Positions 40,091-62,864 of a stretch of DNA of 64,000 bases are shown piece by piece. The translations under genes were made by a program, and so were the position numbers. Source of the stretch: an uncultured Fusobacterium sp. Lineage in GTDB: Bacteria > Bacillota > Clostridia > Lachnospirales > Lachnospiraceae. The DNA is taken from NCBI GenBank assembly GCA_963540885.1, contig CAUTRK010000009.1, positions 26 through 64,025 on the forward strand. The letters run 5' to 3'. Numbering within the stretch: position 1 is the first letter of the stretch; the number at the start of each line of letters is the position of its first letter. The notes beneath the pieces are model-generated. The model did no database searches, was not told the origin of the DNA, and saw only the letters and a list, made by a program, of their open reading frames with translations.

Positions 40091-40327
40091 TTATTCCAGT
40101 ACAAACCTCGCGGTATCTGCTGTCGCCACGAGCTTATCTTCCGCGTATATCCGCACATCCCTTCCCACACATCCGAAATATGGGCAGTGTGCTTCGTCGC
40201 ATATCCCCCAGCTCTCCCCTGGCGGTCTTTTCTTGCGACACACAAAGTCAAATGTTGTATGATCGTCTGGATCTGTGCACGCTATGCGCACCCACTTACA
40301 AGCTGTGGTGAACCTTTCAAAGTCCAT
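40091..40327 (-). CDS. Hypothetical phage protein
   Basis: 78 aa from the ATG at 40327 (RBS agagaggagaaaATG). The longer ORF-track version would run through the tRNA-like elements. Confidence 0.45.
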   Translation of the reverse strand: MDFERFTTACKWVRIACTDPDDHTTFDFVCRKKRPPGESWGICDEAHCPYFGCVGRDVRIYAEDKLVATADTARFVLE

Positions 40328-40382
40328 TTTCTCCTCTCTTTTAGTCCGGCGTCGTGCGGCAACCGCCCCGGACTCAGGCTCC

Positions 40383-40460
40383 CCCGAGCGGTGGGAGTCG
40401 AACCCACCATGCCGCACTAATGACCGTTGAGTGTTGCGGTGCCGGAACGGGAACGCCCGG
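40383..40460 (-). ncRNA. tRNA-like element B (tRNA 3' half or aberrant tRNA)
   Basis: Perfect T arm GUGGG-UUCGACU-CCCAC plus a 3' acceptor strand CGCUCGG-G. The only complementary 5' strand (CCGGGCG) overlaps element A. There is no D arm. A CCGCA/UGCGG stem encloses an 18-nt loop. Confidence 0.3.
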
Positions 40461-40521
40461 AATTGAACCGGAATCAAAGGTCTTACTCCCTTGCGAAGCT
40501 CTACCGTTGAGCTACATTCCC
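40448..40521 (-). tRNA. tRNA-like gene A with a non-canonical anticodon arm (isotype unassignable)
   Basis: Acceptor GGGAAUG/CGUUCCC, D arm GCUC-AACGGUA-GAGC and T arm UCCGG-UUCAAUU-CCGGG are canonical. The anticodon region folds only as a 6-bp stem CAAGGG/CCUUUG with loop AGUAAGA, which lacks U33. Confidence 0.4.
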
Positions 40522-40649
40522 GTGCGCGGTCCATCCAAAGATCGGTTCAAGCAAGACCGCCTGCGTCGGCTTATCTCCGCTCCTTTCGGTCACGACTTCT
40601 CTTGCCTTTCCTGTGAGCTGTTCTCCGCGCGGTAGTATTTCATTTCTTA

Positions 40650-40723
40650 TCGGGAATCCGGGACTCGAACCCGGGACACGCGGCTTATAAGGCCGCCGCT
40701 CTAACCGCCTGAGCTAATTCCCA
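40650..40723 (-). tRNA. tRNA-Ile (anticodon UAU)
   Basis: Full cloverleaf: acceptor UGGGAAU/AUUCCCG (U1-G72), D stem GCUC/GAGC, anticodon stem GCGGC/GCCGC, loop CUUAUAA, T arm CCGGG-UUCGAGU-CCCGG. No CCA is encoded. Confidence 0.8.
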
Positions 40724-40936
40724 AAATCGCGCCATATCCCCAAAGGCGCGTCCTACTTCTCCGAGTACCTGACTACCGGATTTTCGATTTTCTCGCTCGA
40801 CTGGATTTCAGGGTTCCAGCAGGAGGAGGATTCGTTCTGCCGCACTCCTGCATACTACAGATATCTATAGCATCGGAAATCCGCGCGTTCGGGAAACTGT
40901 AAACCCGTCTGGTTTAGCGAGGGAAGATACCTCGGC

Positions 40937-41083
40937 TGCCGTGGGCAAAGATTTGCACTTTGCATGATAATGTACACTCTCGTTCCTTGTGAGATAGGAT
41001 CTGCTATCCGCAGTTTGCGTTATTCATGCTTCACGCATTCCGCTTTTGCACAAGGACGCGTCTACCTATTCCGCCACCACGGC
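40937..41083 (-). ncRNA. Enlarged tRNA-like RNA, unit 1 (147 nt)
   Basis: 7-bp acceptor GCCGUGG/CCACGGC, a class-II-like D arm UGGCGGAAUAGGUAGACGC, and a T-like arm GCAAAG-UGCAAAU-CUUUGC. An 8-bp stem UCCUUGUG/CACAAGGA carries an insert of about 57 nt. Confidence 0.45.
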
Positions 41084-41169
41084 GCTGCGCCAATGCGTCC
41101 ACGGCACATTTCTGCATGTCCTGCGGGATAAGCGATTGAACAGGCTTTCTTCTTATCCCCTATGCATAT

Positions 41170-41352
41170 TCTGCGGGCAAGGATTTGCACCTTGCATAAA
41201 ATAGGATAGGCGTGTTGTGGACGACGCCTCGTTTTACGTCTTACCCGACCAACTTACCATACTCATCTGGTTGGTTTTGCCCGCGCCGTATCGCTTACAC
41301 CGAGCAAATTCTCCTATTTCTGATTAGCGTCTACCTATTCCGCCACCGCAGC
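41170..41352 (-). ncRNA. Enlarged tRNA-like RNA, unit 2 (183 nt)
   Basis: Acceptor CUGCGG/CCGCAG, the same 21-nt D-arm block as unit 1, and a T-like arm GCAAGG-UGCAAAU-CCUUGC whose base changes are compensatory relative to unit 1. The stem GAAAUAGG/CCUAUUUU encloses about 105 nt. Confidence 0.45.
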
Positions 41353-42042
41353 TATTCATCATTCCGGAAAGTGGAACTTCGTTACGGCTATCGGAAATTC
41401 CTCAATCTCCGACGCCCAACGCGCCGTCCCCGGTCCGTTGCATCTCTCCCAACAAAGCGGGAATCCGCCTATCCCGTCGAACAGGCTTCCCATGGTTGCC
41501 GGTCTCTCATACTGTGCCGATATTCTCCGCAGAAGGTAAAACCAGAACGGAAGCGCTATAGAGTTTCCGAGCGCCTTATACCTGGCGCTGTCCGAACTTT
41601 TGTGCTTCTTTCCCTTACTGTCCGTCCATTCCCCTATATCCGTCCATCCGTCCGGGTATCCCTGCAGGCGTTCCTCTTCCAGCGGGGTATATCTCCGCGC
41701 CACTCCATTTACTCTGCATACATTGTTCAGATTCAGGCTTTCTCCGCCGTTTGGCTTCGCCTGGAGCGTACCGTTAATGTTCGGATTTTCTGTGCCGTTC
41801 CGGCAGTCAACCGCCGTCACAATATAGGTTTTCGAATCTTCCCGGAAATCGAGATTCGCTTTTGCCTTTAGCGTGTGCGAAATCTCCGGCGCGTATATCA
41901 ACACTGCCTGTGTGTCGTGCATCGTGTCCAATGTGTTTGCTATCGGTTCCATGGTGATATTGTTCGTCTGGCCGTTGCCAATGCTGACTGCTTCTTTATG
42001 TTCCATGCTCACCACCTCCGAAATCACGCACGGGATCCGCTG

Positions 42043-42049
42043 CCCCCCC
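42043..42049 (-). repeat. Poly-G(7) tract at the second methyltransferase frameshift
   Basis: G6 would join ..SPTLNTAGG to QRIPCVISEVVSMEHK.. in frame. Confidence 0.7.
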
Positions 42050-42634
42050 GGCGGTATTCAGCGTCGGAGATATGTCATATCCGATCCTCGGCGTTCCGTC
42101 CTGGCTCCGTGGCTCAATAATCATTACTCCGTGCCGGTCCGATGTTGATAATGTCGGGCTTGGGTCTCCCGGCTTCCCGATGCCGAGTCCGTTCCCTGCT
42201 CCGTCTCCGTGTCTTGTCGGTCCGCCGCCCTGAAAGCGTGTTGCCTTGTCGTTTATCAGATACGTCTCTCGATCTTCTCCGAATCGGCAGACGGATTGCA
42301 CATAATTTGCTCTTAAAGCTGCGGACTTTTCTTCTTGAATCAGGATTCCTTTTCCTCCGCCGTCTTTTCCGCTCCGTTCCTGGAAGCTGATTGCCTGATC
42401 AGCACTTCCCGCAGCTTCTCCGGCAGTTCCTTCCCCCGTTTCTCCGCCCGTCGGAGGATACCAGCGCAAGCCCTTTCGCTCAAAGAGTACCTCTCCGGCA
42501 CAGAGTCCTCCAAAATCTGCGACAAGAGCGATCCGTTTTCTTCTCTGGGGCACTCCCCAAAACTGGGCGTCGTGTACTCGCCAAGCAACGGACCATCGGC
42601 CCATCCTGTCGTAAAGAAGCCCGCTTGCTGGCCA

Positions 42635-42643
42635 CCCCCCCCC
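42635..42643 (-). repeat. Poly-G(9) tract at the first methyltransferase frameshift
   Basis: G8 would join ..APTLHVPRGG to WPASGLLYDRMGRWSVAWRVHDAQFWGVPQRR.. in frame. Confidence 0.7.
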
Positions 42644-42982
42644 GAGGCACATGCAAAGTTGGGGCTTCCGGGCAGGCGATCCGGACTGTTTCTTCGAGGA
42701 CTGCCGCGAAGTCTTCCCCTTTGTTGGAGCTGAATGCTCCGGGGACGTTTTCCCAAACCATGAATCGTGGTCGAACATTGAAATCTGTACCGCGTCGTTT
42801 CCTGTCAACATCCCGCATCTCCTTTATTACCCTGATCTGCTCCATGAAAAGCCCCGACCTTGCCCCGGCAAGTCCCGCCCGTTTACCGGCTACGCTCAAA
42901 TCCTGGCACGGGCTGCCGCCTATGATGCAGTCCACCGGCTCGATCTCTGCGCCGTTGATCTTCGTGATATCCCCTAAATGAA

Positions 42983-43258
42983 TCATCTTATAAACCCATC
43001 TTGAATATGAATGACCGGGCTTGTCTTCGGCGCGTTCTTGTACATCTCGTTAAGCTGATGCCGCCTGACGCGCTGAATATCCGCGTTCCTGTGTCCATCC
43101 TGACACGTCTCATATTTTCTACACCTAATGCAGTTGTAACCGGCTGTGCATAGATCGCATCTGTCCGCATCGCACTGATACCGGAACCGCAGTTTATATT
43201 TGCATTCGTGCTCCGAGCAATCCTTTATGCTGCAATGCTTAATATCATTGAACAGCAT
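42983..43258 (-). CDS. Cys-rich hypothetical protein
   Basis: 91 aa with about 12 Cys residues. Its stop overlaps the start of the methyltransferase ORF. Confidence 0.45.
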   Translation of the reverse strand: MLFNDIKHCSIKDCSEHECKYKLRFRYQCDADRCDLCTAGYNCIRCRKYETCQDGHRNADIQRVRRHQLNEMYKNAPKTSPVIHIQDGFIR

Positions 43259-43493
43259 TTCTTTCCTCTTTTGCCCGCATTGTAAGCGCTGCTATCTGCT
43301 GTATGGTTTCCGCTTCCTCGGTTCCGTCCATTGCTTCTCCGCAGTATGGGCAGTACCGATATGTGCATATCTTTTTCTTGTCTGTTGATTTCTTCGGCGC
43401 TCCTATCGCTACATCCTGGACGCGCTCCCCGCACGCCGGGCAAATGAATATTCTCGACTTGATGCGCGTGTTCTCCGGTGTCCACAGTCTCAT
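43245..43493 (-). CDS. Zinc-ribbon protein
   Basis: The start MRLWTPENT.. at 43493 forms an ATGA overlap. Contains CPACG....CPYCG. Confidence 0.45.
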   Translation of the reverse strand: MRLWTPENTRIKSRIFICPACGERVQDVAIGAPKKSTDKKKICTYRYCPYCGEAMDGTEEAETIQQIAALTMRAKEERNAVQ

Positions 43494-44380
43494 AGCATGT
43501 TCCCCTTTGCTTTCTGATATGCCGCCTGCCACTTTCTGTAGTTCTCCATAACCGCCCGCGAATATTCCGTGCTGTCATACTTTGCCGAACCCATGTTGTA
43601 AGCGACGACCGCCCGCTCCGTCTCTCCGTACCTTCTGACGCAATCCCCGTATACATAGATCGCGCCCTTGATATTCAACTCATAATCAAGCATTTCGTCC
43701 ATGGAGCTGATACCGAACATTTTTTTGAATGTTCCCTGCCAGGACTTCCGGTTGAGCTGAAACAGCCCGTAATCATGCGTGTTATGATTGACCGCTGTCG
43801 TGCTGAATGTCCCACCGGTTTCCTTGTCTGCCAGCGCAAGCGCCATGATGTAGTCATATCCCGCGCCCGTCCACATGGTATAAAGTGTTTTCTGCTGCTC
43901 CCGTGTGAGCGGCACTTCTTCCAGATAGATAAACCATGCTGCCTCGTCCGGTTCCGTTTCTTCTGTCGGTGCTGCTGCCGTCTCCGCCTGCTCCGCCGTC
44001 TCGATTGGCGGTGCTTCATCGATCTCGATTACATCCCGTTCCGAATGAATCTCAATCATGATTGGTTCTTCCGCCGTCTCCATCGTCTCGACTGCTGCCA
44101 TGGCCGGGAATGTGTCCGCCGTGTTTGCCCCGATGAATACCGCGACTGTTGCCAGGACTGCTCCCGCTGCCGCGATAGTTCCCCGGCAGGCGGTTCTTCT
44201 CCGTCTTATCCTTCTGCGGATCCTTGCCGCTTTCTGGAATGTGGCTCCCGCCGCCATCATCAGCATACATGCCAGCATACCGCCGACTGTCACGCTCACC
44301 TCATTCAAATCAGCCCCGGACGCAAAGAGCATTTCCCCGAAAAATCCGATACCGATCAGAACATCCCCGACCACCTTCAT
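43490..44380 (-). CDS. Membrane-anchored lytic transglycosylase (SLT domain)
   Basis: N-terminal TM helices, an acidic linker, and a C-terminal ..ADKETGG...HDYGLFQLN....AYNMG.. Confidence 0.65.
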   Translation of the reverse strand: MKVVGDVLIGIGFFGEMLFASGADLNEVSVTVGGMLACMLMMAAGATFQKAARIRRRIRRRRTACRGTIAAAGAVLATVAVFIGANTADTFPAMAAVETMETAEEPIMIEIHSERDVIEIDEAPPIETAEQAETAAAPTEETEPDEAAWFIYLEEVPLTREQQKTLYTMWTGAGYDYIMALALADKETGGTFSTTAVNHNTHDYGLFQLNRKSWQGTFKKMFGISSMDEMLDYELNIKGAIYVYGDCVRRYGETERAVVAYNMGSAKYDSTEYSRAVMENYRKWQAAYQKAKGNML

Positions 44381-62399: not shown

Positions 62400-62629
62400 T
62401 TTACAGCTCCCTCCGCTCTCCAGAGCGGGTCTCATATTTCCAAAGACTGCCGACAGCGCTCTCCGCGTGCCATATTCGTTAAAAGTATACGACAGAATGC
62501 CGCATTCGGCAACTTTGATACCAGAAAATCGGTCCGTCTTTGATGCCAGAAAAGCGGTCCGTCTGACGACGCACCGCCTCACCATTTTTTTCATCCGCAC
62601 ATCCCGCTTTGAATGAGAACCATGAACGT

Positions 62630-62864
62630 TACCGCGGCAGCAAGCTCGGTGACGGTGATCCCGCATCACCCGTACGCATTCGCTTAGTGCTGCTGCATTC
62701 CTGCCCTGACACGGTTCGCGAAGGTCCGCCGCGCGGGGACCCTCACGTCAACACCGCTTTCCGCGGGCTGCTTCACAGTTCACGCACCCGAGGCGGGATA
62801 TCACCCCTGCTGTGGCGGGTTGCAGGTGCAGGGAACCGCCATCTCCCCGGCTGTGCGGACCTTC
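62630..62864 (-). ncRNA. ffs: Signal recognition particle RNA (large Bacillus-type, with Alu domain)
   Basis: The minus strand reads GGGGAGAUGGCGGUUCCCUGCACCUGCAACCCGCC...GGUGUUGACGU.AGGGUCC...GAACCGUGUCAGG...GCAGCACUAAGCG. This matches, block for block, my recollection of the B. subtilis scRNA. A TATACT -10 lies just upstream. The ends are approximate. Confidence 0.65.

Follow-up and report, generated by a model that had tools for sequence, protein, structure and literature searches.

The prophage carried by the window analysed here, 64,000 nucleotides (nt) of contig CAUTRK010000009.1 from an uncultured Fusobacterium sp., contains a block of 1,031 nt (positions 40328–41358) without a credible open reading frame (ORF), which raises the question of what the largest gene-free gap of this prophage encodes. 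The block is bounded on the minus strand by the TGA stop codon of the upstream ORF (41361–41359) and by the ATG of the downstream gene (40327), which is preceded by a GAGGAGA ribosome-binding site, and all of its elements lie on the minus strand. An earlier sequence-only reading had singled it out as the largest stretch without genes, and indeed the second-largest gap between minus-strand ORFs of the prophage measures 367 nt. The block is likely to be a phage array of tRNA and tRNA-mimic genes, in which one module, element A, is a natural tRNA scaffold presenting a structured RNA module, and two others, elements B and D, are diverged or degenerate paralogues. Element A belongs to a widespread, strongly covarying and pseudoknotted family of phage RNAs that spans several bacterial phyla and is absent from Rfam 15; in the literature searched, the family is apparently unnamed.

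Element A and its phage RNA family

Element A is a 184-nt RNA (41169–41352, minus strand) whose 5′ end lies 6 nt after the upstream stop codon. It retains those parts of a class-II (leucine-type) tRNA that processing enzymes recognise, namely a 7-base-pair (bp) acceptor stem (41346–41352 with 41170–41176), a tRNA-Leu-like D arm (UGGCGGAAUAGGUAGACGC, 41327–41343), a T arm with a 6-bp stem and the loop UGCAAAU (GCAAGG-UGCAAAU-CCUUGC, 41177–41195) and the elbow. The D arm is almost identical to that of bacterial tRNA-Leu. The element has no anticodon loop: the anticodon arm is replaced by a multi-helix pseudoknotted domain of approximately 130 nt, and within the family conservation is highest in this insert. 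The linker UAAUCAG (41320–41326) leads into the anticodon-like stem P2 (41312–41320 with 41198–41206), which is followed by helix Pb (41301–41308 with 41276–41283), hairpin Pc with the conserved loop AGAUGAGUAUGGUAA (41249–41274), the junction strand UAAAAC (41231–41236) and the invariant hairpin P3 (41208–41230). The pseudoknot joins GGCG inside GAUACGGCGCGGG (41284–41287) to CGUC in the P3 loop (41220–41223). The element thus carries, in the family register, the acceptor-like stem, D-like hairpin, UAAUCAG, P2 and GAGA, and further 3′ the series UAAAACGAGGCG-loop-CGCCUAU and the T-like hairpin.

A covariance model of the class-I core (R1) was derived from 24 other phage sequences, with the window excluded. 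It matches element A over 41195–41326 (model positions 1–130) with a score of 124.3 bits (E = 5.5e-32) and has no other match in the 64-kb window, with element B unmatched even when filters were switched off. The scaffold was aligned separately for 18 tRNA-like ('type 1') members, with the interior masked. All scaffold helices covary in these relatives. Of the cells, 93.3% are paired, compared with 36–48% after sliding of the 3′ partners, and 19 of 31 pairs vary in both bases. None of 500 shuffles reaches any of these measures.

For the interior, 25 class-I cores were aligned. In P2, 99.5% of cells are paired and all nine pairs covary; Pc covaries at six of six pairs, and P3 is invariant. The four bases that follow GAUAC, in the context GAUAC-NNNN-CGG, pair with nucleotides 2–5 of the P3 loop in a single register in 23 of the 25 members, with element A having the GGCG/CGUC version. 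The changes compensate one another: GAUG is found with CAUC (5/5), GGCG or GACG with CGUC or CGUU (7/7), and GGUG with CACC or CAUC. None of 2000 shuffles reaches this observed pairing. In the alignment, 99% of pseudoknot cells are paired. The 5′ strand after GAGA has two alternative partners, Pa (72.9% paired) and Pb (83.5%), which may reflect a structural switch; a composite of outer Pa and inner Pb fits best and was used in R1. With its frequent G-U pairs, the fold can form only from the minus strand. The sarcin–ricin loop, k-turn, T-box and hammerhead were considered by eye for the conserved ACGAGAG and GAGA motifs and rejected, as the motif context does not fit.

Relatives were recovered by several routes. 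BLAST against phage records gave partial matches of element A in Listeria phage B025 and in the tRNA cluster of a Klebsiella phage, and the first relatives in IMG/VR were retrieved with the pattern GGTAGACGCTAATCAG. An unrelated 3′ pattern, AAAACGAGGCG-N(4–34)-CGCCTAT, matched at least 120 IMG/VR contigs, and 101 unique matches were examined; the full signature, with AAUC(A/G) and a complementary stem at the right distance, is present in at least 78 contigs (78 of the 101 unique matches listed). From 5′ to 3′, the family comprises an acceptor-like stem, a D-like hairpin, UAAUCAG, P2, GAGA, a variable interior, UAAAAC, the invariant hairpin GAGGCG...CGCCU, AUC with the 3′ strand of P2, a T-like hairpin and the 3′ acceptor strand. 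The variable interiors form a few classes, each kept across distant phages, and relatives of element A are found without the rest of the block.

Members are present in phages B025, CUS-3, IME10 and mEp460, in Klebsiella phage Magnus and in an Aeromonas phage. Those in Escherichia coli prophages are unannotated, and one variant occurs in 211 of 5426 complete E. coli genomes. Genuine genomic members were also identified in Pseudomonas, Enterococcus, Clostridium and Beijerinckiaceae; the genome scan, with a pattern of 18 specified bases against 596 gigabases, gave 119 matches, most of them chance occurrences inside genes and approximately 5–8 of them true. Where family members have not gone unannotated they are mis-annotated as small ORFs, such as gp64 of B025, and Rfam has no match on the element itself in 14 loci at gathering thresholds or in 3 loci at E ≤ 1.

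Association with tRNAs is a recurrent feature. At 31 of 98 loci, tRNAs are nested in the element or found no more than 300 nt away, invariably on the strand of the element. Eleven of the 98 have a tRNA-like module nested inside the variable domain (for example L036, L059, L065, L081, L100, L104, L109, L112 and L117); since most of these modules have abnormal anticodon loops, with 2-nt or 4-nt 'anticodons' in ARAGORN, they are better regarded as mimics than as decoding tRNAs.

The chassis is tRNA-like in phages of Firmicutes and held by kissing loops in proteobacterial phages, where the D and T loops are replaced by covarying loop pairs (GCUGA/UCAGC, UAGCGA/UCGCUA and UGAUG/CAUCA). Kissing-loop runs of at least 5 bp were found in 22 of 67 members, against 7.3 expected. 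Because the proteobacterial members swap the elbow for kissing loops, it is the tRNA outline that is conserved, not tRNA identity. The covarying acceptor stems lead into a free tail, and approximately 16% of members encode CCA, and approximately 30% CC, directly after the discriminator. Type-1 members mostly have an A discriminator, and their T loop is usually the non-canonical UGCAAAU. A linked protein partner was considered and rejected, as the nearest ORFs at approximately 90 loci form no dominant cluster; the only recurrent neighbours are ArpU-like proteins (5 + 2), Q (2), RtcB (2) and small terminase subunits (2). Taken together, the kissing loops, the covarying acceptor stems, the encoded CC or CCA, the same-strand tRNAs and the absence of a recurrent protein fit a natural tRNA scaffold.

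The position of the element in the phage genome varies: it lies between Q and S, after ArpU, inside tRNA arrays or, in the window, in the early region. In CUS-3 (L355 2501–2728) it takes up the late leader from Q to the holin gene S, shares their orientation and is flanked by two annotated 'boundary sequences'. The copy in an E. coli prophage (L151 5001–5220) is located between the terminase and portal genes, on the opposite strand to both. The B025 copy (L001 417–990, minus strand) lies in a gap without coding sequence that extends over the annotated start of gp64; this ORF also overlaps the 3′ part of the element and may be spurious. The 5′ flank of this copy has sub-threshold matches to rliG, immediately upstream of the element, and to rli62, and the 3′ flank has an mcrA RNA motif (78 bits); in another Listeria phage, rliG is described in the literature as expressed in lysogeny and dispensable for virion production. 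Other RNAs observed near family members are a type-P5 twister ribozyme approximately 1.3 kb away (L044 11480–11534, minus strand, 58.5 bits) and, just upstream, a Proteo-phage-1 RNA (L143) and an isrJ RNA (L123).

Other modules and the prophage setting

The remainder of the block, read 5′ to 3′ on the minus strand, begins with a hairpin, GGGAUAAG/CUUAUCCC, with a 19-nt loop (41125–41159; repeat family D3). It is followed by a repeat of the 3′ end of element A (CCCGCAGGACAUGCA), the two together probably being a duplication scar or a degenerate T arm; no relatives of the hairpin were found. Two sites between elements A and B resemble recombination scars: this repeat of the 3′ end of A after the hairpin (41113–41127) and, at 41099–41105, a repeat of GCCGUGG, the 5′ acceptor strand of element B, that continues directly into ACGC, as if the D loop had been deleted.

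Element B (40937–41083) is a paralogue of the scaffold of A, as indicated by repeat families D1 and D2 and by its predicted fold. Its acceptor stem is a perfect 7 bp (GCCGUGG/CCACGGC), and it is 92% identical to A in the D arm (26 nt) and 91% in the T arm (23 nt), with unrelated interiors. The body is class-II-like with a cryptic anticodon loop, GU-GCA-AA, and the 56-nt insert contains two hairpins and is closed by the 8-bp stem UCCUUGUG/CACAAGGA (41049–41056 with 40984–40991). Element B does not carry the family signature, having neither UAAUCAG nor GAGA nor UAAAACGAGGCG, and B-specific patterns gave a single chance match or nothing in IMG/VR.

The unassigned region C (40725–40936, approximately 210 nt) contains a hairpin at 40819–40851, a long-range helix (40777–40788 with 40872–40883) and a GCGCC/GGCGC hairpin just 5′ of the tRNA that follows; inverted repeats I3 and I4 belong to this region. 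Its folding energy has a z-score of −1.8 relative to shuffled controls, equalled or beaten by 8 of 200 shuffles, and no Rfam or BLAST relatives were found. The next module (40649–40724) is a canonical tRNA-Ile with the anticodon UAU, which reads AUA (ARAGORN; Rfam tRNA, 63.6 bits, E ~ 1e-11). AUA makes up 18.3% of isoleucine codons in the prophage ORFs and 12.8% in the flanking host ORFs, a modestly higher use that fits a decoding role for this tRNA. A pattern search with it for prophage relatives returned nothing. A spacer (40523–40648) containing the hairpin GCGGUC...GACCGC (40526–40560) has no distinctive fold (z = −0.70).

The second tRNA (40447–40522) is aberrant. ARAGORN calls it as Leu-taa, and it scores 42.3 bits with Rfam (threshold 29; E ~ 1e-5), with an insertion in the anticodon arm of the alignment. 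The acceptor, D and T arms are normal, and the molecule is set apart by a 6-bp anticodon stem, the loop AGUAAGA (G33) and a 4-nt connector between the D and anticodon arms; its fold z-score is −3.17. The anticodon is ambiguous, being UAA by default and 2 nt long in a relaxed ARAGORN run, and with its class-I body and G73 the molecule is no ordinary tRNA-Leu. Its anticodon loop might make it one of the variants proposed to escape defences that target tRNAs; alternatively, it might be a frameshift or decoy tRNA. Element D (40345–40446), the last module, has a tRNA-like multibranch fold (z = −1.65) with a 6-bp terminal stem (UCCGGC/GCCGGA), a D-like hairpin and a canonical T arm (GGUGGG-UUCGACU-CCCACC, 40390–40408). 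Neither ARAGORN nor the Rfam tRNA model calls it, and its sole match is to the Tymo_tRNA-like family at chance level (E = 5.2).

At default settings, therefore, RF00005 and ARAGORN call the tRNA-Ile and, irregularly, the RNA at 40447–40522, with A, B and D uncalled. The sequence-only reading had counted one canonical tRNA and four tRNA-like elements, a tally that fits the tRNA-Ile, the irregular tRNA and elements A, B and D; canonical describes the tRNA-Ile correctly, with the qualification that the programs call two tRNAs. The three hairpins that it had listed are likewise all present, one of them (40819–40851) approximately 5 nt from where it had been placed.

According to Pfam, the block sits in the early, DNA-metabolism part of a siphovirus-like prophage, with the genes for the small terminase, GpA-type large terminase, portal, protease and capsid 15–23 kb further along, also on the minus strand. 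The early region further encodes a Rep ORF2/G2P-like replication protein (PF23343; 34075–34914, minus strand) and an SLT transglycosylase (43490–44380). The sequence to the right of approximately 45.1 kb is host chromosome, and contains the bacterial large signal recognition particle RNA (62595–62858, minus strand, 159.5 bits).

Immediately upstream of the block is a C5 cytosine DNA methyltransferase (41359–42986, minus strand) in three overlapping frames, hence with apparent frameshifts. It appears to be circularly permuted, with PF00145 positions 46–129 first and 253–323 later, and motif I (MGSLFDGIGGF...FHFPE), normally N-terminal, is found at the extreme C-terminus; the C-terminal motif I is conserved, as 80 metagenomic relatives match through residues 220–222. 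None of these 80 relatives has a family element after the gene, and none has a tRNA there save one, 1.8 kb downstream; the block therefore behaves as a sporadic cargo insertion. For the 78-residue protein downstream of the block, a search of 5.8 billion proteins gave a single relative, encoded on a contig without the block, and viral and genome contigs gave none. The prophage lineage of the window is poorly sampled, this single relative being a sign of it.

Proposed processing and competing explanations

A promoter and terminator scan of the block found no excess of sites inside it and no convincing internal promoter or terminator, from which we infer that the block would be read through as part of the surrounding operon. 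Given the tRNA mimicry, host RNase P and the 3′-end and CCA-adding machinery would then cut each acceptor-like stem and free the modules as separate stable RNAs. Mature element A would act in trans through its conserved junction and pseudoknot domain. No phage protein accompanies it consistently, so its putative partner is probably some conserved component of the host or a ligand.

Several observations weigh against this interpretation. The 6-bp T stem of element A makes the acceptor/T stack 13 bp rather than 12, and positions 1:72 form a G-A mismatch in the window copy, so that cleavage by RNase P is plausible and not guaranteed. A 91-nt insert closed by its own stem (ACGAGUA/UACUCGU) is present inside the T loop (UG | insert | CAAAU) of one family variant, seen in three independent metagenomes (L018 6433–6705, with identical copies in L026 and L033); it could be intron-like or an expansion domain, and sits uneasily with a strict requirement for the elbow. 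No relatives of elements B and D or of region C were detected, and these three may lack a function. Finally, no description of a named family was found in the literature, and a bulk catalogue of phage RNAs (PMC10690425) may list this one without a name.

The alternative that survives best is that duplication and recombination of tRNA genes left B, D, the spacers and region C behind as debris without a function, only the two tRNAs and element A being functional; we regard this as tenable but not favoured. The near-identical D and T arms of A and B around unrelated interiors, the scar-like repeats of GCCGUGG (with the D loop deleted) and of the 3′ end of A, the lack of IMG/VR relatives for B and its interior, and the thermodynamically unremarkable folds of the spacers, B and region C (z-scores of −0.5 to −1.8) are all as such a history would leave them. 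However, B retains a perfect acceptor stem, the 8-bp long-range stem and intact D and T arms, and D retains a canonical T arm and a closing stem. The missing relatives may reflect only the poor sampling that the single relative of the 78-residue protein illustrates.

A bolder proposal, which we consider rather unlikely, makes the family an undescribed class of phage RNA with a tRNA-shaped chassis and interchangeable pseudoknotted cargo. Its members would be cut by RNase P, tailed with CCA and active as tRNA mimics, rather than merely stabilised RNAs. Such a mimic might engage the ribosome, EF-Tu or a synthetase; it might instead sequester or disable host defence enzymes whose target is the tRNA acceptor end, or bind a ligand used in immune signalling.

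Less probable still is that element A is an aminoacylatable, tmRNA-like mimic that is tailed with CCA, charged (by leucyl-tRNA synthetase, LeuRS, for type-1 members) and directed at the ribosome or some other aminoacyl-tRNA-dependent system, or that it serves as a decoy for toxins attacking tRNA acceptor ends. LeuRS ignores the anticodon, and type-1 members combine the tRNA-Leu-like D arm with a mostly A discriminator. Encoded CC or CCA is enriched after the discriminator, and the layout, an acceptor, T and D-like domain with a structured insert in place of the anticodon arm, is that of tmRNA. Against this, the proteobacterial kissing loops mean that no synthetase identity set is kept across the family, the T loop is non-canonical, and the insert has no conserved reading frame. 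A tmRNA identity proper was rejected: ARAGORN makes no tmRNA call, G3-U70 is absent (position 3:70 is U-A in element A and varies among relatives) and candidate frames are not conserved. A sub-threshold tmRNA_permuted match lies beside, not on, the Klebsiella phage copy.

That A, B or both are intron-containing tRNA genes, spliced to a decoding tRNA such as a class-II-bodied tRNA(GCA) from B, is improbable. Allowing introns and a relaxed threshold, ARAGORN models B as a tRNA-Cys(GCA) interrupted by 56 nt (39/40). The 3′ end of this insert is base-paired with the anticodon, an arrangement known from eukaryotic and archaeal pre-tRNAs, and RtcB genes adjoin the element at a few family loci. The same relaxed run nevertheless yields clearly spurious intron-containing tRNAs, no known identity set accommodates a GCA anticodon combined with a class-II body and A73, and element A lacks an anticodon loop altogether, its insert being the family's most conserved part. 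To our knowledge, bacterial tRNA introns are self-splicing group I introns with a P3–P9 core and a length of approximately 200 nt or more, whereas the inserts here measure 56 nt (B) and approximately 130 nt (A), with no Intron_gpI match at E ≤ 10.

The sequence-only reading had proposed a single large ornate RNA of the ROOL or GOLLD type over approximately 40724–41358, with the tRNA-like pieces as its domains. The setting in a prophage beside tRNAs and the length of approximately 635 nt suit it, GOLLD and ROOL have been described near tRNAs in prophages (PMC5737381), and the minimum free energy structure of the 634-nt stretch contains some long-range pairs. The proposal is nonetheless refuted in this form, and a reading along its lines now seems highly improbable. 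A scan of the whole window with all of Rfam 15 at gathering thresholds found neither ROOL (RF03087) nor GOLLD (RF01998), and in the block it matched only the two tRNAs. At E ≤ 10, the 1.4 kb around the block (40200–41600) gave, besides tRNA, only the chance-level Tymo_tRNA-like match, with no ROOL, GOLLD, tmRNA or group I intron, and the 201 nt around element A (41160–41360) gave no family other than tRNA. The fold of the 634-nt stretch is unremarkable (z = −1.64). In place of one continuous RNA of approximately 0.5–0.8 kb there are modules with acceptor-like closing stems of their own, A and B closing individually; R1 matches only 41195–41326, and relatives of A occur alone or with other neighbours at approximately 100 other loci. 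The general intuition of a conserved, intricately folded phage non-coding RNA beside tRNA genes holds, for a 184-nt family other than ROOL or GOLLD.

A function of the conserved sequence as DNA, at a site of integration, packaging or replication, is suggested by the frequency of tRNA-like integration targets and by the members near terminase genes, but scarcely credible, given compensatory changes that keep helices with many G-U pairs (A-C mismatches on the other strand), an orientation that is always that of the adjacent tRNAs and a varying position in the phage genome.

Significance and relation to known systems

Phage tRNA islands are usually interpreted as helpers of codon usage, and the block indicates that conserved, structured, tRNA-shaped RNAs reside there too. 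The family of element A ranges over phages of Listeria, Enterococcus, Clostridia, E. coli, Klebsiella, Salmonella, Aeromonas, Pseudomonas and Alphaproteobacteria, several of whose hosts are genetically tractable, and in lambdoid phages it occupies a late-operon leader, as in CUS-3. If the scaffold reading is correct, the family would add a class to the few natural tRNA mimics (tmRNA, Y RNAs and viral tRNA-like structures) and provide a natural precedent for the tRNA-scaffold device of RNA engineering. It would also make testable again the role of the stable RNAs other than tRNAs in phage tRNA clusters, a question that dates from species 1 and 2 of phage T4.

Those two RNAs of T4 (rnaC and rnaD) resemble element A as small stable RNAs whose genes stand in a row with those of phage tRNAs. 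Their maturation appears to accompany that of the T4 tRNAs, and rnaC, judged by its annotation and sequence, finishes in a canonical T arm followed by a 3′ strand of acceptor type. The two have neither UAAUCAG nor UAAAACGAGGCG...CGCCUAU nor the class-I core, and homology was rejected in the absence of a shared motif; they are analogues, not homologues.

The tmRNA (SsrA) has the same layout, with an acceptor stem, T arm and D-like domain, a pseudoknotted insert in place of the anticodon arm, and ends at the acceptor stem. Element A differs in the lack of a tmRNA call, of G3-U70 and of a conserved tag frame, and in an insert of only approximately 130 nt; no SmpB-related context was seen. The bacterial Y RNA YrlA, a tRNA mimic with T-like and D-like arms that is bound by Ro60/Rsr, also occurs in phages and has been reported as a substrate for RNase P and for CCA addition (PMC4201824). 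It was rejected as an identity for element A on topology: YrlA is permuted, with T before D, its 'acceptor' is a closed stem-loop, and it ends in a Ro-binding stem with GNCGAA, whereas in element A the D arm precedes the T arm and the open ends are at the acceptor stem. A Ro60 (TROVE) gene on the same strand within approximately 4 kb would be expected for YrlA; no TROVE protein was detected among the selected prophage ORFs scanned with Pfam, a scan that was not exhaustive.

ROOL and GOLLD share with element A an association with phages and prophages, a frequent position beside tRNAs and an elaborate fold. Some GOLLD RNAs enclose a tRNA, as do 11 of the 98 family loci a tRNA-like module. They are approximately three to four times larger and their covariance models do not match, whereas element A is built on a tRNA cloverleaf. 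Ordinary phage tRNA arrays are like the block in their tandem same-strand genes, short spacers and non-coding island, and the tRNA-Ile(UAU) fits codon supplementation; the block differs in that three of its five modules are not decoding tRNAs. A further parallel is artificial. In the tRNA scaffolds that Ponchon and Dardel engineered for recombinant RNA expression, the anticodon arm is replaced by a cargo RNA, and cellular tRNA-processing enzymes trim and stabilise the product. Compared with these, element A is natural and conserved, and has an invariant junction of its own (UAAUCAG, GAGA, UAAAAC and P3) and several alternative classes of cargo.

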